UHGV virus genome: UHGV-1353943
DNA from: a virus
Reading direction: 5' to 3' (one strand)
Length of the DNA: 32,893 bases
Of this stretch, positions 1,293-15,919 are shown piece after piece. The position numbers were made by a program, and so were the translations under genes. The notes under the pieces were generated by a model. The model did no database searches, was not told the origin of the DNA, and saw nothing but the letters and a program-made list of their open reading frames with translations. Every line of letters starts with the position of its first letter. Within the stretch, counting starts at the first letter, position 1.

Positions 1293-1940
1293 TCACAATT
1301 TATCCATGGTATCTGGCACTAACAAATCGGAATGTTCATACATCGTCTGCTTGACACTATGTCCCAGTGTGTATAGAAAAATCTGTCGGCCTTCTTTCCT
1401 GGCAAATTTTATAATTGGAACAAAATCTGAATCACCAGTCACCAAAGCATATATATCTGCCTGTTTTTTTAATGACATTGATGACATATCTAACGCAATA
1501 CGCATATCAACGCCTTTCTGCTGAACATTAGGCTTAACATTGTAGGCATTAATGGAAGAAGTTTTAGAGTCACTGCTCTTTAATGCCCATGGGTCAACCT
1601 TCCATCCTCGAAAGTTTGTCTCTCCAAGTCTTACTGCAAAAAAAGGAGTTCTTTTCAACTCATCAAGCATGGCTTTATTTCTTTTAGAAACTTCTGTTTC
1701 AGAGAAGTCAATTTTCTCTCCACTAATCGGATGCGTCTGTATTCCGGTAAGCGGCTCTGCATCGTAATAATAAATACGGTGCAAAATCATGCCTTCTAGT
1801 TCAGGCCTTTTTGTTAGTTTTTCTACAAATACTTTGATTACTTCCGCATCGATTGGCTTATCTTTTGTGCCTAATTTTGCACGCAAAAAACCAGCATCGA
1901 TCATGATGGCATATTTTCTGGTCATTGATTTGCAATTCAT
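1293..1940 (-). CDS. NYN/LabA-like (PIN-fold) domain protein; accessory gene
   Basis: 215 aa; N-terminal YAIMIDAGFL (Asp-containing strand) and C-terminal GDSDFVP are typical of NYN/LabA nuclease folds; markedly AT-rich compared with neighbours; no clear SD at any of the three candidate ATGs (1940, 1925, 1904). Confidence 0.6.
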   Translation of the reverse strand: MNCKSMTRKYAIMIDAGFLRAKLGTKDKPIDAEVIKVFVEKLTKRPELEGMILHRIYYYDAEPLTGIQTHPISGEKIDFSETEVSKRNKAMLDELKRTPFFAVRLGETNFRGWKVDPWALKSSDSKTSSINAYNVKPNVQQKGVDMRIALDMSSMSLKKQADIYALVTGDSDFVPIIKFARKEGRQIFLYTLGHSVKQTMYEHSDLLVPDTMDKL

Positions 1941-3364: not shown

Positions 3365-3999
3365 TAAGCAGCCGCTCCTTCTAATTCGTCTCGTCTGATG
3401 TTGTAAACGTCCTGCGCTTTGTGCTGCTCAGGTGTGCCTTCGAGCATCTTCCACGCTTTGGCGAACGCCTGTTTAAGCTCTTCCACGGTGTTTTTCTGCA
3501 ATGCTGCGTCAGTGAATGCTTTTAGAACCTGTTCAGGTGTAGGTGATGGTTTTGATTGCTTTGCTGCTGCGTTCTGCTGATGTTTATGCTCGTCGGTATC
3601 TGCATCTTTCGCATCATCAATGCCGAACAAACCATTGAGGCAATACTTGCGTGCATAAGAGCTTGTAGCTCCCGTAACTTGTGCAGAATCCATTCCTTTC
3701 TTGCTTTCTTCCTCTCGTGCAAGAGCGGTTGCCGTATGACTGTTTTCGCCATCGGTAATAGTTGCCGTGGCTTTCACGTAATACCGATCACCAATCAACA
3801 CAACTTCATCGCTGATTGATAAAAACAGGCCATTCAGTAACGGCTTAACGCCTTCAAGAATGTCTTCGCAGCTTCTGTATTTATATTTGCCGAATGAGTT
3901 GTACTGATTCTTTGGCGCGTTCAGATTCTCCTGAATAGCTGCCAGTCTTGCGTAAAATTCTTTGCTCATATGATTGTTCTCAGAATGGACATGGCCCAA
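3364..3999 (-). CDS. erf: Erf-family ssDNA annealing (recombination) protein
   Basis: SYARKYCLNGLFGI core resembles the ERF superfamily; sits where lambda bet / P22 erf sit; start ambiguous (ATG 3999 or 3969). Confidence 0.65.
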   Translation of the reverse strand: MGHVHSENNHMSKEFYARLAAIQENLNAPKNQYNSFGKYKYRSCEDILEGVKPLLNGLFLSISDEVVLIGDRYYVKATATITDGENSHTATALAREEESKKGMDSAQVTGATSSYARKYCLNGLFGIDDAKDADTDEHKHQQNAAAKQSKPSPTPEQVLKAFTDAALQKNTVEELKQAFAKAWKMLEGTPEQHKAQDVYNIRRDELEGAAA

Positions 4000-4058
4000 G
4001 GAAATAACGCTGATTTAATACTTCAGTCTTTGCCGCATTTAAAAATACGCGAACACCT

Positions 4059-4229
4059 TCACGATCTCCCTTCTGGCGATACATTAACGCCTGCTGCGTG
4101 TACATGCGTCTCTGTAACTTGCTCTCCTTCACTGTGGTTGCAAGTGACATGAATATCTCCTTCGTTACCGATTAAATCTTTCATCTGACGAATGAATTCT
4201 TCGTCTGACCAGTTATCTGTAAAACTCAT
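4059..4229 (-). CDS. Hypothetical small protein (kil-position gene)
   Basis: 56 aa from the internal ATG at 4229, which forms an ATGA overlap with the cIII-like stop; identity unknown. Confidence 0.4.
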   Translation of the reverse strand: MSFTDNWSDEEFIRQMKDLIGNEGDIHVTCNHSEGEQVTETHVHAAGVNVSPEGRS

Positions 4230-4396
4230 GGACGGCCTTGTTGTTTCAAAATATCCCAAAGCTTTTCGAGCAAGCTTTTCATTCTTGGTTGTTTAAAGTC
4301 TGCTCCGGTTAAAATGTTTTTTCGTGAATGCTGTACCGATAAAATCGGGTTGAAAGGGCGAACCGATGCCGCCCCTGCAATAGCGAACTGTTGCAT
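4226..4396 (-). CDS. cIII: cIII-like protein (putative FtsH/HflB inhibitor)
   Basis: 56 aa from ATG 4396 with AAGGAG RBS; N-terminus MQQFAIAGA and SLLEKLWDILKQ resemble lambda CIII; correct position left of N. Confidence 0.5.
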   Translation of the reverse strand: MQQFAIAGAASVRPFNPILSVQHSRKNILTGADFKQPRMKSLLEKLWDILKQQGRP

Positions 4397-4465
4397 AGGA
4401 TGCTCCTTCTGTTTGATTGCATAACGAAAACGCCTCAAGTGAAGCGTTATTGGTATGCATATAAA

Positions 4466-4492
4466 AAGGCCCTCACACTGGAGGGCAAAGAA
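4466..4492 (-). terminator. Intrinsic terminator (GCCCTC-CAGTGT-GAGGGC plus TTTTTAT on minus strand), tL-like
   Basis: Strong GC hairpin and T-run on the minus strand between the membrane-protein gene and cIII. Confidence 0.6.
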
Positions 4493-4635
4493 GATTTCCA
4501 ATAATCAGAACAAGTCGGCTCCTGTTTAGTTACGAGCGACATTGCTCCGTGTATTCACTCGTTGGAATGAATACAAAGTGCAGTGTTTATTCTGTTGTTT
4601 GTGCCAAAAATAAAGGCCGACTATGCGTCCTGAAA

Positions 4636-5001
4636 TTACTTAACCAATGATGCTGCATATTCGATAAGGTAAAGTTTTGGAGCAAGCCAAATTTTCAGCC
4701 AGTCGAAATAATTGAAGAAAACAACAATAGAAGTAATCTCTATTCCTGATGTGACAAGTAGTGATAAAAGAACAATATCTGCATCATCTCCTTTATTCCA
4801 TGCAAAAATCATCAGATAAACACACGCTATAATCACCAATACACAGATAGCCTGAATTCCAGCTGATGATACGGCGTGCCACATCAAAAGCTGATGGATG
4901 ACATCAGGAATCTGTGCCTGGCTAAATGAAACAGCCGCGTCTATTCCATTGCTGGCTTTTTGCAGTAGTTCTACGAGAATCTTGTTTGCTTGTTCTTCCA
5001 T
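4636..5001 (-). CDS. Small membrane protein (two predicted TM helices); possible superinfection-exclusion-type gene
   Basis: 121 aa; hydrophobic stretches IQAICVLVIIACVYLMIFAW and IVLLSLLVTSGIEITSIVVFF; AAGGTGA RBS; AT-rich; terminators on both sides. Confidence 0.5.
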   Translation of the reverse strand: MEEQANKILVELLQKASNGIDAAVSFSQAQIPDVIHQLLMWHAVSSAGIQAICVLVIIACVYLMIFAWNKGDDADIVLLSLLVTSGIEITSIVVFFNYFDWLKIWLAPKLYLIEYAASLVK

Positions 5002-5049
5002 ATATCACCTTGATTGTAATAAGCATGAAATTATTTACGGCTAAAAAAT

Positions 5050-5080
5050 AAAGGCCACCATCAGGCAGCCTTGTTGTAAA
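5050..5080 (-). terminator. Intrinsic terminator (AAGGCTGCC-TGAT-GGTGGCCTT plus TATTTTTT on minus strand)
   Basis: Hairpin and T-tract read on the minus strand; overlaps the 3' end of ORF 5061..5312. Confidence 0.5.
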
Positions 5081-5312
5081 TGTTGCAGGTATCAAGTAAG
5101 TAATTAGATGGAGCGCCATAAATTATGAATTCATCGTTTGTCGGATCCATCTCCATCTCTTGGCCTATTGCCATTCTTGCGTCAGTGTCATCAGCGGCGA
5201 AGCATAAAACAGCCCACGCTCCCATTGTTTTAAAAAGAACTGCAATTGGCTGTGGTTTTACTGAATTTGCGTTAGCGCGAAAATCACAAATCGCACTTTC
5301 ATGAAATTCCAT
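5061..5312 (-). CDS. Hypothetical protein immediately downstream of N
   Basis: ORF 5061..5369; internal ATG at 5312 preceded by GAGGT RBS and clear of N. Confidence 0.4.
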   Translation of the reverse strand: MEFHESAICDFRANANSVKPQPIAVLFKTMGAWAVLCFAADDTDARMAIGQEMEMDPTNDEFIIYGAPSNYLLDTCNIYNKAA

Positions 5313-5320
5313 ATCTAACC

Positions 5321-5620
5321 TCAAATAAGTGGTTTGCTGCCTAATTTCATTTTCTGGCGACCAACACAAGTCATACCCATTTCACTGCGTGGCTTGCGGT
5401 AGTAAATACGATTCTGTTTACGCTCGACTTCTTCTTCCTTCTTGCAGCGAAGGCTTCCGAGTGATGCTGCTTTGTCTGCTCTGACGCAACCAGAGAGCTT
5501 TAGCGCAATTTTTCGCGCCAGTCGCTGCTCTTGCATTGCCTGTTCACGTTGAGCCTGTCTGCGTGCTCTGCGGCGATTTCTGGCGTTATCGTCAGCCAGA
5601 TATGTAATGACTACTGTCAT
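5321..5620 (-). CDS. N: Antitermination protein N
   Basis: 99 aa; N-terminal arginine-rich motif (NARNRRRARRQAQ) and C-terminus CVGRQKMKLGSKPLI close to lambda N; GGAGG RBS; nutL in its leader. Confidence 0.8.
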   Translation of the reverse strand: MTVVITYLADDNARNRRRARRQAQREQAMQEQRLARKIALKLSGCVRADKAASLGSLRCKKEEEVERKQNRIYYRKPRSEMGMTCVGRQKMKLGSKPLI

Positions 5621-5726
5621 GTTGACCTCCGATGATTGACTTTGGCGGTGACGCGCCGGGTGCTTATCTTCCGGTTGCCGTCGTGCAGCTGCACTTCACG
5701 TCACCCCAAAGCCAACTACTCTTTGG

Positions 5727-5770
5727 TTCCCGCATTTCGGCGGGACAATCCCATCAATGTTAAAGAGCCT
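5727..5770 (-). promoter_or_regulatory. nutL: nutL (boxA GGCTCTTTAACA, 13-nt spacer, boxB hairpin TCCCGCC-GAAAT-GCGGGA)
   Basis: BoxA-like sequence and stem-loop read on the minus strand in the N leader; the same boxB recurs at nutR. Confidence 0.65.
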
Positions 5771-5809
5771 GCCAATCTTTTCCGTTTGGCTTCCAGCGTC
5801 CTGCTGATG

Positions 5810-5845
5810 GCTTAAATTTAAGATCTCTTTAATTAATGGTCAAGA
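5810..5845 (-). promoter_or_regulatory. pL promoter (-35 TTGACC, 17-bp spacer, -10 TAAATT) overlapping TTAAGA-type operator half-sites
   Basis: Hexamers read on the minus strand upstream of the N leader; TTAAGATCTCTTTAA overlaps the promoter. Confidence 0.55.
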
Positions 5846-5911
5846 GTATTTTTGAAGAAAACTTAAATTTTCTTTCGTAACTTAAGTTTGGCTTTGATTT
5901 TTAAAGGAAAT

Positions 5912-5934
5912 AAAAAAAAGGGGCGAATGCCCCC
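5912..5934 (-). terminator. Intrinsic terminator just after the repressor gene (GGGGGC-ATTC-GCCCC plus T8 on minus strand)
   Basis: Hairpin followed by eight T on the minus strand, directly after the repressor stop codon. Confidence 0.6.
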
Positions 5935-6585
5935 TTATGGAAGGTTTGCTAGTTTTGCATCGACAACTACGCCGATGATTTTGCAGTTTCCGTTGATCTC
6001 GATCATCGGATATTGTGGGTTAAGTGGTTTTAGAAACTTCCTGCCTGCATCAATAACTAACTTCTTGAAAGTTGCCTCGTTTTCTCCTTCGAGCTTTGCA
6101 ACTACCAGTTTCCCGTTACGCGGCTCTACTTCAGGATCGACGAGTATTATCATTCCTTCAGGGATACTGAGACCGGCCGGAGCCGTCATTGAGTCTCCCT
6201 TCACGTCCAACCAAAACGAATCTTCTGAACAGTCTACGGTTGTATCGTACCAGTTATCTATTGCACGCTTATGATATGGTTCTACAGCTTCCATCCAGCA
6301 TCCTGCGCTCACCCAGCTAATCAGAGGGTATGACCCTCTTGGATCATGCCTACTGTGATAGGCAATGTTTGAAAGACTTTCCTCTCCTTTCATCAGATAG
6401 TCAGGGGAACACTTCAACGCATTAGCCAGGGCGAGAAGATTCTCTCCATTTGGCTCTGTCTCAGAGCGTTCCCACTGAGATATGGCAACATTAGACACGC
6501 CGACCATCTTTCCAAGTGCGGCCTGCCTGATCTTAAGTTCTTTTCTCCGAGCGCGAATGCGCTCTCCCATCAATTGAGTTTTCAT
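5935..6585 (-). CDS. c2: Prophage repressor, P22 C2-type (HTH plus S24 LexA-like peptidase domain)
   Basis: 216 aa; HTH (QAALGKMVGVSNVAISQWE), Ala-Gly cleavage site and GDSM...K Ser/Lys dyad; very close to P22 C2 as recalled. Confidence 0.9.
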   Translation of the reverse strand: MKTQLMGERIRARRKELKIRQAALGKMVGVSNVAISQWERSETEPNGENLLALANALKCSPDYLMKGEESLSNIAYHSRHDPRGSYPLISWVSAGCWMEAVEPYHKRAIDNWYDTTVDCSEDSFWLDVKGDSMTAPAGLSIPEGMIILVDPEVEPRNGKLVVAKLEGENEATFKKLVIDAGRKFLKPLNPQYPMIEINGNCKIIGVVVDAKLANLP

Positions 6586-6665
6586 AGTTAAGACATCTTA
6601 AATAAACTTGACTTAAGATTCCTTTAGTGGATAATTTAAGTGTTCTTTAATTTCGGAGCGAGTCT
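6586..6665. promoter_or_regulatory. OR region: divergent pRM/pR with three operator-like sites built on TTAAGA half-sites; pR -35 TTGACT (6608-6613), -10 ATAATT (6631-6636)
   Basis: TTAAGACATCTTAA, CTTAAGATT and ATTTAAGTGTTCTTTAAT read directly; the last matches a P22-type 18-bp operator and overlaps the -10. Confidence 0.65.
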
Positions 6666-6851
6666 ATGTACAAGAAAGATGTTATCGACCACTTCGGAAC
6701 CCAGCGTGCTGTAGCTAAAGCGTTAGGCATTAGCGATGCAGCAGTCTCTCAGTGGAAGGAAGTCATCCCAGAGAAAGACGCCTATCGACTGGAAGTCGTT
6801 ACAGCTGGCGCCCTGAAGTATCAAGAAAGCGCTTACCGCAAAGCGGCATAA
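6666..6851 (+). CDS. cro: Cro repressor
   Basis: 61 aa HTH protein (QRAVAKALGISDAAVSQWK) transcribed divergently from the repressor; GGAG RBS. Confidence 0.8.
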   Translation: MYKKDVIDHFGTQRAVAKALGISDAAVSQWKEVIPEKDAYRLEVVTAGALKYQESAYRKAA

Positions 6852-6857
6852 GCAAAT

Positions 6858-6902
6858 TGCTCTTTAACAGTCATGGTCCTCATTCCCGCCGAAATGCGGG
6901 AA
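6858..6902 (+). promoter_or_regulatory. nutR: nutR (boxA TGCTCTTTAACA, 13-nt spacer, boxB hairpin TCCCGCC-GAAAT-GCGGGA)
   Basis: BoxA is nearly the rrn-type consensus; boxB is identical to the nutL copy. Confidence 0.65.
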
Positions 6903-13224: not shown

Positions 13225-13409
13225 ACGCCACAATTCAAACGATACCAGAGCTTCTTATCCAGACACGAGGCAATCAGACCGAAGTGGCAAGGATGCTTTC
13301 CTGCGCAAGAGGAACAGTGCTCAAGTACAACCGAGACAGCAAAGGCGAGCGTCACGTAATAGTTAACGGCGTCCTGATGGTCAAACAGGGCAAGAGGGGA
13401 AGACGATGA
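13221..13409 (+). CDS. ninH: NinH-like protein
   Basis: 62 aa; TIPELLIQTRGNQTEVARMLSCARGTVLKY resembles lambda NinH. Confidence 0.6.
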   Translation: MNATIQTIPELLIQTRGNQTEVARMLSCARGTVLKYNRDSKGERHVIVNGVLMVKQGKRGRR

Positions 13410-14029
13410 GACTCGAAAGCGTAGCTAAATTTCATTCGCCAAAAAGCCCGATGATGAGCGACTCACCACGGGCTACGGCTTCTGACTCTCTTTCCGGTAC
13501 TGATGTGATGGCTGCTATGGGGATGGCGCAATCACAAGCCGGATTCGGAATGGCTGCATTCTGCGGTAAGCATGAACTCAGCCAGAACGACAAACAAAAG
13601 GCTATCAACTATCTGATGCAATTTGCACACAAGGTATCGGGGAAATACCGTGGTGTGGCAAAGCTTGAAGGAAATACTAAGGCAAAGGTACTGCAAGTTC
13701 TCGCAACATTCGCTTATGCGGATTATTGCCGTAGTGCCGCGACGCCGGGCGCAAGATGCAGAGATTGCCACGGTACAGGCCGTGCGGTTGATATAGCAAA
13801 AACAGAGCAGTGGGGGAGAGTTGTTGAGAAAGAGTGCGGAAGATGCAAAGGCGTAGGCTATTCCAGGATGCCAGCAAGCGCCGCATATCGCGCTGTAACG
13901 ATGCTAATCCCAAACCTTACCCAACCCACCTGGTCACGAACTGTTAAGCCGCTGTATGACGCTCTGGTGGTGCAATGCCACAAAGAAGAGTCAATCGCAG
14001 ACAACATTTTGAATGCGGTCACACGTTAG
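13406..14029 (+). CDS. Q: Late antiterminator Q (lambda type)
   Basis: 207 aa; sequence, length and position before pR' match lambda Q as recalled; zinc-binding Cys cluster present. Confidence 0.85.
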   Translation: MRLESVAKFHSPKSPMMSDSPRATASDSLSGTDVMAAMGMAQSQAGFGMAAFCGKHELSQNDKQKAINYLMQFAHKVSGKYRGVAKLEGNTKAKVLQVLATFAYADYCRSAATPGARCRDCHGTGRAVDIAKTEQWGRVVEKECGRCKGVGYSRMPASAAYRAVTMLIPNLTQPTWSRTVKPLYDALVVQCHKEESIADNILNAVTR

Positions 14030-14071
14030 CAGCATGATTGCCACGGATGGCAACATATTAACGGCATAATA

Positions 14072-14100
14072 TTGACTTTTTGAATAAAGTTGGGTAAATT
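14072..14100 (+). promoter_or_regulatory. Late promoter pR' (-35 TTGACT, 17-bp spacer, -10 TAAATT), overlapping the qut region
   Basis: Hexamers read directly; surrounding sequence is lambda-like. Confidence 0.7.
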
Positions 14101-14240
14101 TGACCAAACAATGGGTCAATTCGCTCGTTGTGGTAGTGAGGTAAAAAGAGGCGGCGCTTACTACCGATTCTGCCTAGTTGGTCACTTCGACGTATCGTCT
14201 GGAACTCCAACCATAGCAGGCTGAGAGGTCTGCAAAATGC

Positions 14241-14302
14241 AATCCCGAAACAGTTCGCAGGTAATAGTTAGAGCCTGCACAACGGTTTCGGGATTTTTTA
14301 TT
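14241..14302 (+). terminator. tR' terminator (long hairpin AATCCCGAAAC...GTTTCGGGATT plus TTTTTTAT); ends the short pR' (6S-type) transcript
   Basis: Extended inverted repeat and T-tract read directly; lambda-like. Confidence 0.75.
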
Positions 14303-14303
14303 T

Positions 14304-14378
14304 GGGTCAGTCGTATAAAGGTCATTACGGAAGGCTGTTAACCTTCTTATCGTGGTTCGAGTCCACGCTGTCCCGCCA
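14304..14378 (+). tRNA. tRNA-Asn-like (anticodon GTT), non-canonical D-arm
   Basis: Hand-folded: acceptor GGGTCAG/CTGTCCC (one T-T mismatch), anticodon stem GAAGG/CCTTC with loop CTGTTAA, T-arm CGTGG-TTCGAGT-CCACG, encoded CCA; D-stem only 3 bp. Confidence 0.5.
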
Positions 14379-14383
14379 AACAT

Positions 14384-14459
14384 GCTGGTTTAGCTCCAAT
14401 GGTAGAGCGGTCGCCTTGTAAGCGAATGGGTAGCGGTTCAAGTCCGTTAACCAGCACCA
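14384..14459 (+). tRNA. tRNA-Thr (anticodon TGT)
   Basis: Hand-folded 76-nt cloverleaf: acceptor GCTGGTT/AACCAGC, D-arm GCTC-CAATGGTA-GAGC, anticodon loop CTTGTAA, T-arm AGCGG-TTCAAGT-CCGTT, encoded CCA. Confidence 0.7.
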
Positions 14460-14701
14460 TAACTGAGCCGTAGCCACTGGCTGTCCTGAATTCATCAGTG
14501 ATAGTTACGCTGCGGCCTTCTACGCATGACCTTCGTGAAAGCGGGTGGCAAGAAGTTGCGCTAACAACCTCCTGCCGTTTTGCCCGTGCATATCGGTCAC
14601 GAACAAATCTGATTACTAAACACAGTAGCCTGGATTTGTTCTATCAGTAATCGACCTTATTCCTAATTAAATAGAGCAAATCCCCTTATTGGGGGTAAGA
14701 C

Positions 14702-15025
14702 ATGAAGATGCCAGAAAAACATGACCTGTTAGCCGCCATTCTAGCGGCAAAGGAACAAGGCATCGGGGCAATCCTTGCGTTTGCAATGGCGTACCTTCGC
14801 GGCAGATATAATGGCGGTGCGTTTACAAAAACAGTAATCGACGCAACGATGTGCGCCATTATCGCCTGGTTCATTCGTGATCTTCTCGACCTCGCCGGAC
14901 TAAGTAGCAATCTCGCTTATATAACGAGCGTGTTCATCGGCTACATCGGTACTGACTCGATTGGTTCGCTTATCAAACGCTTCGCTGCTAAAAAAGCCGG
15001 AGTAGAAGATGGTGGGAATCAATAA
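14702..15025 (+). CDS. S: Holin S (lambda class I; dual-start antiholin/holin MKM motif)
   Basis: 107 aa, near-identical to lambda S as recalled ([20 protein letters not shown]...). Confidence 0.9.
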
Positions 15026-15485
15026 TCAACGTAAGGCGTTCCTCGATATGCTGGCATGGTCAGAGGGAACTGATAACGGACGTCAGAAAACCAGAAATCA
15101 TGGTTATGACGTCATTGTAGGCGGAGAGCTATTCACTGATTACTCCGATCACCCTCGCAAACTTGTCACGCTAAACCCCAAACTCAAATCAACAGCCGCC
15201 GGACGCTACCAACTTCTTTCCCGTTGGTGGGATGCCTATCGTAAGCAGCTTGGCCTGAAAGACTTCTCTCCGAAAAGCCAGGACGCTGTGGCATTGCAGC
15301 AGATTAAAGAGCGTGGCGCTTTACCAATGATTGATCGCGGCGATATTCGTCAGGCAATCGACCGTTGCAGCAATATCTGGGCTTCACTGCCGGGCGCTGG
15401 TTATGGCCAGTTCGAGCATAAGGCTGACAGCCTGATTGCAAAATTCAAAGAAGCTGGCGGAACAGTCAGAGAGATTGAGGTATGA
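15009..15485 (+). CDS. R: Endolysin R (lytic transglycosylase, lambda type)
   Basis: 158 aa, near-identical to lambda R as recalled; overlaps the S 3' end. Confidence 0.9.
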
Positions 15486-15919
15486 GCAGAGTAACCGCGA
15501 TTATCTCCGCTCTGGTTATCTGCATCATCGTCTGTCTGTCATGGGCTGTTAATCATTACCGTGATAACGCCATTACCTATAAAGAACAGCGCGATAAAGC
15601 AACGTACATCATCGCTGACATGCAGAAGCGTCAACGTGATGTAGCAGAACTTGACGCCAGATACACAAAGGAGCTTGCTGATGCTAACGCGACTATCGAA
15701 AGTCTCCGTGCTGATGTTTCTGCTGGTCGTAAGCGCCTGCAAGTCTCCGCCACCTGTGCAAAGTCAACGACCGGAGCCAGCAGCATGGGCGATGGAGAAA
15801 GCCCAAGACTTACAGCAGATGCTGAACTCAATTATTACCGTCTCCGAAGTGGAATCGACAAGATAACCGCGCAGGTTAACTACCTGCAGGAATACATCAG
15901 GACGCAATGCCTGAAATAA
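15482..15919 (+). CDS. Rz: Spanin, inner-membrane subunit Rz
   Basis: 145 aa; N-terminal TM ([21 protein letters not shown]) as in lambda Rz; central part diverges. Confidence 0.8.
15681..15866 (+). CDS. Rz1: Spanin, outer-membrane lipoprotein Rz1 (embedded in Rz, +1 frame)
   Basis: 61 aa from ATG 15681 with AAGGAG RBS; lipobox LVVSAC, Pro-rich; nested in Rz. Confidence 0.7.

Follow-up and report, generated by a model that had tools for sequence, protein, structure and literature searches.

T4 Imm is a small early protein of the inner membrane that blocks DNA injection, and SieB, a prophage-expressed protein of about 190 residues, acts by aborting infection. In HK97, the inner-membrane protein gp15, which is encoded in a moron position, blocks the genome entry of related phages. 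The P22 protein SieA, also an inner-membrane protein encoded in a moron position, stops the genome entry of related phages (PMC10883804). Here we analyze a 121-residue protein with two transmembrane (TM) segments that is encoded by the open reading frame (ORF) at 4636..5001, on the minus strand, of the virus genome UHGV-1353943; the term window refers to this whole stretch of DNA, which is 32,893 nucleotides (nt) long. A sequence-only reading had placed the gene between N and cIII in the early-left (pL) operon and had suggested an exclusion or abortive-infection membrane protein of no family that could be named. Our analysis adds three features, namely ends that are conserved even in virulent phages, a core that is exchangeable, and the failure to detect a promoter belonging to the gene, together with the placement of family members in early or middle gene clusters of virulent phages. 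The gene and the parts of its product, together with the evidence by which each part was delimited, are as follows.

4636..5001, minus strand: ORF of the 121-residue two-TM membrane protein of PHROG 3054 (ATG start, PHROG profile match, AlphaFold2 model)
4876..5001, minus strand: conserved N-terminal scaffold, residues 1-42 (alignments, amphipathicity, and the ratio of nonsynonymous to synonymous substitution rates, dN/dS)
4708..4875, minus strand: hypervariable TM1-loop-TM2 cassette, residues 43-98 (identity clustering, DNA comparison between alleles)
4639..4707, minus strand: conserved C-terminal scaffold, residues 99-121, FDWLKIWLAPKLYLIEYAASLVK (pairwise identity, codon changes)
5002..5040, minus strand: short, AT-rich leader carrying the ribosome-binding site (RBS) AAGGTG at 5011..5006 (sequence reading)

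The two ends of the protein are recognizable by motifs. The first approximately 42 residues carry GIDxAVxFxQAQIPDVxxQLLxW, which leads into the first TM segment (TM1), and the last approximately 22 residues, after the second TM segment (TM2), carry WLKIWxAPKxYLxEYAAxLxK. Family members from Vibrio, N4-like, and Stephanstirmvirinae phages still have both motifs. A107, P108, and K109 are invariant in the family alignments, and the window protein has all of the conserved residues, i.e., F26, P32, V34, and W41 toward the N-terminus and I104, A107-P108-K109, L112, and E114 toward the C-terminus. Among 210 sequences, the median pairwise identity is 58% over the N-terminal 38 residues and 80% over the C-terminal 20, with only 22% in the middle, where the same sequences fall into 97 clusters at 35% identity. 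The core varies both in sequence and in length, and the loop between the TM segments ranges from 3 to about 80 residues across the family.

The DNA of allele pairs tells the same three parts apart, as the flanking DNA is 93-97% identical and the terminal codons 83-91%, whereas the middle scores 0.45-0.49 against 0.50 for shuffled sequences. In the last 22 codons, comparison with the homologue from PhiR46_1 revealed synonymous changes in 12 codons and replacements in only 2. By the Nei-Gojobori method, dN/dS of the N-terminus is 0.06-0.09, while at the C-terminus dS is saturated and dN is about 0.04. That the conserved termini might reflect recent recombination was considered and ruled out by these near-saturated synonymous sites. 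Within one cassette type, dN/dS is 0.16-0.44 for the loop and 0.75-1.5, i.e., close to neutral, for TM2; the values for the loop indicate that it is functional within its cassette type. These comparisons of sequences establish a picture in which a near-invariant scaffold surrounds a TM1-loop-TM2 cassette that is swapped by intragenic recombination.

On the evidence of its profile match, the 121-residue protein is a true member of PHROG 3054, a family without an assigned function. It matches the phrog_3054 profile with an E-value of 1.4e-46, its residues 1-121 aligning with profile positions 1-137 of 137. Relatives in PHROG 3054 include the Sf6 gene 34 protein, CUS-3 ECRS218_0047, Oslo AMBK_46, HK633_044, and a Vibrio phage ‘TMhelix containing protein’. 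A homologue search with the window protein returned 573 homologues, and when 1.84 billion cluster representatives (50% identity) were searched with a profile, 4,532 matched at E<=1e-3 and 1,936 of these at E<=1e-10. The existence of hundreds of homologues and the strong purifying selection on the termini argue firmly that the ORF is a real gene.

Coliphage HK633 and P22-like Salmonella phages, e.g., SPN9CC, have copies with 99% identity to the window protein; a near-identical allele is thus carried by unlike virions, that of the siphovirus HK633 and those of the P22-like phages. In the GenBank record of HK633 (HK633_044, locus L001, 3675..3851), only the C-terminal 58 residues of the 121-residue homologue are annotated, and the conserved N-terminus shows that the start of this gene was miscalled. 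Alleles with 41-55% identity are found in CUS-3, Stx2a phages, Oslo, and PhiR46_1. Relatives with 30-40% identity occur in strictly virulent phages, including Stephanstirmvirinae (e.g., ‘alia’), N4-like Salmonella phages (e.g., TR2), many Vibrio phages, and phages that infect Rheinheimera, Klebsiella, and Pseudomonas; a search that started from the TR2 protein also recovered the Sf6 gene 34 protein and a homologue in HK639. The alleles differ in size, with 140 residues in Sf6 and CUS-3 and 149 in the Stx2/Oslo type, the loops of both being about 35-37 residues long, as opposed to 7 in the window allele, whose loop is of the shortest kind. One further locus (L064, 4001..4450) is an intragenic recombinant, in which the ends are of the Stx2_EH2085 type and the TM-loop-TM cassette is of the PhiR46_1 type. 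Each phage carries a single copy of the gene (180 places in 178 records).

The source labels on the homologues, including those from a second homology search with a remote-member profile, are all uninformative (‘hypothetical’, ‘TMhelix containing’, ‘phage transmembrane protein’, or unnamed). A Pfam scan of the protein gave no match at E<=1, an NCBIfam scan gave noise only, and a scan of PADLOC-DB v2 gave only ‘2TM effector’ matches over the TM region (E 0.11 and 0.15), which reflect TM composition only. A profile search of PDB sequences yielded 0 matches at E<=10; Foldseek found nothing below E=1 in PDB and, in BFVD, uncharacterized phage proteins only, e.g., from Pseudomonas phage Bjorn. In the literature searched there was no study of the PHROG 3054 family. 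The earlier statement that the protein resembles no nameable family therefore holds as far as Pfam and NCBIfam are concerned, but the protein is not a rare novelty, as it belongs to a very large family.

The two hydrophobic helices and the AT-rich, well-initiated gene that the sequence-only reading described were both borne out. The Kyte-Doolittle mean over 19 residues peaks at 2.79 for TM1 (residues 49-67) and at 2.23 for TM2 (residues 76-94), and the two are joined by a very short loop of 7 residues, NKGDDAD. The GC content of the ORF is 38.5% versus 50.0% in the window, and the AAGGTG RBS is spaced 4 nt from the ATG. AlphaFold2 modeled the window protein with a mean predicted local distance difference test score (pLDDT) of 83.5 and with helices at residues 2-70 (the N-terminal helix and TM1), 74-97 (TM2), and 100-120 (the C-terminal helix). 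In the model of a 140-residue allele, a loop of roughly 20 residues has a pLDDT >80. The N-terminal helix is amphipathic, with a hydrophobic moment (muH) of 0.43-0.53, and the C-terminal segment is hydrophobic and not amphipathic. Short loops carry on average about 2.6 lysine or arginine (K/R) and about 2.8 aspartate or glutamate (D/E) residues, the basic ones beside TM1 and the acidic ones beside TM2, and the C-terminus carries about 2.8 K/R. On grounds of parsimony, we assume that both termini face the cytoplasm (N-in/C-in).

The genes around the ORF form a lambdoid early-left operon, in which the 121-residue gene is placed as follows.

6666..6851: cro-like gene (basis: ORF translation only, no profile scan)
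5935..6585: cI-like repressor gene (basis: ORF translation only, no profile scan)
5321..5620, minus strand: N-like antiterminator gene (phrog_271, E 1.7e-36; weak Pfam N_peptide match)
5064..5312, minus strand: gene for an 83-residue protein (phrog_2471, E 1.4e-61), between the N-like gene and the 121-residue gene
5041..5072, minus strand: upstream intrinsic-terminator-like hairpin, stem 5072..5051 (9 base pairs, bp), T-run 5050..5041 (-13.9 kcal/mol, z -2.5)
4606..4631, minus strand: terminator hairpin right after the stop codon, with a C-to-A stem mismatch and no stable stem in the window
4460..4486, minus strand: downstream terminator, stem 4486..4469 followed by a T-run, about 150 nt past the stop codon (-10.7 kcal/mol, z -3.0)
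4421..4448, minus strand: second downstream terminator-like hairpin, stem 4448..4429, just ahead of cIII (-9.9 kcal/mol, z -2.7)
4229..4396, minus strand: cIII-like gene, the next pL gene downstream of the 121-residue gene (phrog_550, E 1e-22)

The proposed location in the pL operon between N and cIII was thus supported by the phrog_271 and phrog_550 matches, with the qualification that the 83-residue ORF also intervenes. The two terminators that had been said to bracket the gene both fold (z -2.5 upstream and z -3.0 downstream), and the upstream one overlaps the end of the 83-residue ORF. Altogether, 9 terminator-like sites occur in 3900..6700 versus 2.4 +/- 1.5 in shuffled sequences. The hairpin that follows the stop codon is intact in CUS-3, where it has a perfect 6-bp stem (AGGCCG/CGGCCT). 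Because this stem is mismatched in the window phage, transcription there probably continues past 4606..4631 as far as the terminators at 4486 and 4448. The spacer that would be traversed (4487..4605, minus strand) shows 96-97% identity to its counterparts in CUS-3 and Stx2_EH2085, and an inverted repeat, TGTATTCA..TGAATACA, lies within it; an Rfam scan of 3900..6900 produced only a chance match to a small nucleolar RNA and none to this spacer. Beyond cIII, the pL genes of the window encode Erf, an SSB-like protein, Abc2, an Ea22-like protein, and a NYN-domain protein. The last of these, of 215 residues (1293..1940, minus strand; PF01936, E 9e-12; phrog_5783), lies at the far pL end near xis/int and may be an RNase-type accessory or defense gene.

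The 121-residue gene travels as part of a module. The window, CUS-3, and Stx2_EH2085 share a unit that consists of the upstream terminator, a leader of about 45 nt, the RBS, the ORF, and the post-stop terminator, and the 75 nt 5' of the ATG match CUS-3 and Stx2_EH2085 at 93% identity. The gene that precedes the unit differs, being the 83-residue ORF in the window and ral in CUS-3 and Stx2_EH2085, and yet the sequence of the upstream hairpin is the same in the latter two phages despite the different preceding gene. Since CUS-3 and the Stx2 phages have ral in this place, the 83-residue ORF is not coupled to the 121-residue gene.

The family gene strongly prefers this slot, whose conservation the sequence-only reading had proposed to check: an N-like gene lies just upstream in 64 of the 77 related viral loci from IMG/VR, at a median gap of 320 nt. 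Outside of this post-N slot, PhiR46_1 has the family gene between Rz and Nu1. In phage Oslo the family gene adjoins a sieB gene and does not replace it; this annotated sieB (locus L008, 1769..2356) lies directly between N and the family gene, both of which are on the other strand. Among 5,426 complete E. coli genomes, the slot flanks are present in 2,246, and only 22 genomes cover >=80% of a 1-kb query. Like a moron, the 121-residue gene is patchily present and deviates in base composition, and it is followed by a terminator of its own, a hairpin with a T-run lying directly 3' of the homologues in Oslo, PhiR46_1, and vB_Se_EI_sp1 as well as in CUS-3; in the window this terminator is weakened and two more follow. 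These comparisons show that the gene belongs to an accessory, horizontally mobile unit whose place is just after N in the pL operon.

One moron feature was not seen. By simple consensus search, no sigma-70 promoter was detected in any of three contexts, namely the stretch from the upstream terminator to the ATG in the window and the sequences upstream of the Oslo and PhiR46_1 genes. Because no promoter of its own is visible and a terminator stands upstream, the gene is probably transcribed from pL only when N overrides this terminator, which is the likely route of its expression. Its product would probably be among the first delayed-early proteins made after infection or induction. This timing agrees with the position of family members in virulent phages, which is in early or middle gene clusters, i.e., after the RNA polymerase genes in the N4-like phage TR2 and, in Vibrio phages, close to genes for replication or nucleases. 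A conserved neighboring gene in the virulent phages was also considered and dropped, as no two of the neighbors there are related (an AAA ATPase, a DUF2800 nuclease, and a YadA/collagen protein). In TR2 (vB_SalP_TR2; locus L005, 4426..5403), the gene directly after the family member encodes a protein with a collagen triple helix and a YadA-like anchor, which resembles autotransporter adhesins and is unusual in an early or middle region of a phage genome.

Invariant ends around a core that is exchangeable, and yet conserved within its type, are the signature of a specificity determinant on a common scaffold, and variable surfaces are typical of phage-versus-phage conflict. By analogy, we tentatively favor superinfection exclusion of the Imm kind, which would act at the inner membrane while the phage develops lytically; the cassette would pick the target, and the scaffold would oligomerize or dock. 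We would put the probability of this reading at about one in three (0.35). The 121-residue protein would enter the inner membrane early and stop the genome entry of later-arriving phages. The exchangeable hairpin and loop would choose the incoming machinery or a membrane target, while the conserved ends would share a common task, e.g., oligomerization or docking to a conserved component of the inner membrane. The two TM segments, the confident helical model, the accessory status of the gene, the swapping of the cassette between conserved ends, and the probable early, N-dependent expression speak for exclusion, which is a reasonable hypothesis for this protein. If exclusion is true, the early-lytic Imm type is more likely than the abortive SieB type.

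A number of observations weigh against this proposal. The tests for sequence similarity to the known exclusion families Imm and SieB were negative, and the function is argued from analogy. The strongest conservation resides in the termini and not in the loop, which a conserved host partner would explain no less well. The same allele is present in HK633 and SPN9CC, whose virions are unrelated, and therefore the cassette is not matched to the injection apparatus of its own carrier. Whether the variable loop faces the periplasm is ambiguous by the positive-inside rule, as the mean K+R count of the 25 residues before TM1 is only 0.18, against about 2.6 K/R in short loops. The dN/dS values, including those of 0.16-0.44 for the loop and 0.06-0.09 for the N-terminus, rest on few substitutions, and a weak or non-sigma-70 promoter could escape a simple consensus search. 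A broader version of the idea holds that PHROG 3054 constitutes a widespread modular system of phage-versus-phage or phage-versus-defense specificity, in which a universal scaffold, nearly invariant from Vibrio to Escherichia phages, carries a swappable cassette that sets which incoming phage or membrane effector is stopped. This would make it a new major family of early exclusion or counter-defense proteins common to temperate and virulent phages, but we regard it as doubtful.

The conservation of the ends leads directly to another reading, in which the protein is an effector of host takeover or envelope physiology. In this case, the termini would bind a conserved host protein in or near the inner membrane, such as a protease, a division component, or a transporter, for early reprogramming of the cell, and the hairpin would serve mainly as an anchor. 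This would be the best account of the extreme end conservation, since termini that are kept across phages of Escherichia, Salmonella, Vibrio, and Pseudomonas at a dN/dS of about 0.1 suggest a conserved partner; the occurrence in early gene clusters, the vicinity of cIII and, in related phages, of a kil homologue, and the single copy per phage are also in line with it. However, a mere anchor would not need some 100 distinct cassette types, nor would it require loops that are conserved within their type and swapped as units. Moreover, there is no lead to a partner gene or domain, as the neighbors in the virulent phages are unrelated. For these reasons we judge host takeover to be rather unlikely, even though it explains the termini well.

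The diversity of the cassettes also resembles an arms race, and the target could be a host or prophage defense rather than another phage. The protein would then be a membrane-embedded inhibitor of membrane-bound defense effectors (Rex-like, 2TM-effector, Zorya-type, or Kiwa-type), with its hairpin matched to their TM segments. Its gene sits in the accessory part of the pL operon beside anti-restriction and anti-RecBCD genes, with ral in CUS-3 and the Stx2 phages and abc2 in the window, and it is carried by temperate and virulent phages alike. But counter-defense has no precedent in PHROG 3054 and no tie to a particular defense system, and the ‘2TM effector’ matches in PADLOC, at E-values of about 0.1, do not provide one because they are due to TM composition. 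We consider this explanation distinctly unlikely.

Quite improbable is the reading with which the analysis of this locus began, namely that of a SieB-like protein for exclusion or abortive infection, here taken to be expressed in the lysogen under a promoter of its own. Parts of it stand, since the slot, which is the same as that of sieB and ral in lambda and P22, and the two-TM build of the protein are fitting, the low GC content and the flanking terminators are moron-like, and one homologue, that of PhiR46_1, occupies the post-lysis moron slot, which in lambda is the place of the prophage-expressed bor. What finds no support is the link to known exclusion or defense proteins and to prophage expression, which marks exclusion of the sieB type: no Pfam or PADLOC model matched, those of SieB included, and no Imm or other defense homology was seen, while the stretch between the upstream terminator and the ATG lacks a recognizable promoter in all three contexts. 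Furthermore, the family gene co-occurs with sieB in Oslo, and strictly virulent phages, with no lysogen to be protected, commonly carry it.

A role in lysis timing as a class II holin, a pinholin, or an antiholin-like protein, to which the size, the two-TM hairpin, and the location of the PhiR46_1 homologue shortly after R and Rz might point, is most improbable, and holin identity was rejected on position and on the absence of holin-model matches in Pfam, NCBIfam, and PHROGs, given that the gene lies in the early-left operon, that the window already has a full Q-dependent lysis cassette (Q-holin-endolysin-Rz at 13406..15919, with holin, endolysin, and Rz at 14702..15919), and that members in virulent phages are not beside endolysins. 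Accordingly, of the outcomes that would have spoken against the sequence-only reading, neither a lack of TM helices nor homology to a characterized holin or other late-function protein was encountered.

No part of phage accessory genomes is less well understood than the small membrane proteins, and PHROG 3054 spans both lambdoid prophages of E. coli and Salmonella, Stx2a phages among them, and virulent phages of types that are considered for therapy (N4-like phages and Stephanstirmvirinae). Its invariant ends and swappable core make its architecture readily testable. If its members exclude other phages or disarm membrane-bound defenses, this would bear on prophage-mediated phage resistance, on the design of phage cocktails, and on how thousands of ‘hypothetical’ genes are annotated. 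If, instead, they act on a conserved host membrane protein, the invariant motifs would help to identify it.

Among the known systems, T4 Imm is the functional analogy for the 121-residue protein that we favor. Both are small phage inner-membrane proteins with two hydrophobic segments, and both are associated with early lytic expression and with virulent phages, although for the 121-residue protein the timing is inferred. However, the protein has no similarity to Imm_superinfect (no Pfam match at E<=1), and we know of no invariant termini around an exchangeable hairpin in T4 Imm. With lambda and P22 SieB it has in common its accessory nature and the variable pL slot, from N (gene 24) to cIII, but it differs from SieB in lacking homology to it in the Pfam, NCBIfam, and PADLOC scans, in lacking a detectable promoter, in coexisting with sieB in Oslo, and in being present in virulent phages as well. 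Class II holins and pinholins such as S21 have a similar size and a two-TM hairpin, but they are encoded in late-operon lysis cassettes, as opposed to the early-left operon in which the 121-residue gene is found. In contrast to the 121-residue protein, SieA and gp15 are expressed from the prophage, are encoded at other genome positions (ant moron, tail region), and have sequences that are probably unrelated. By analogy with these systems, the 121-residue protein may work like T4 Imm, P22 SieA, or HK97 gp15, apparently without belonging to any of their families.

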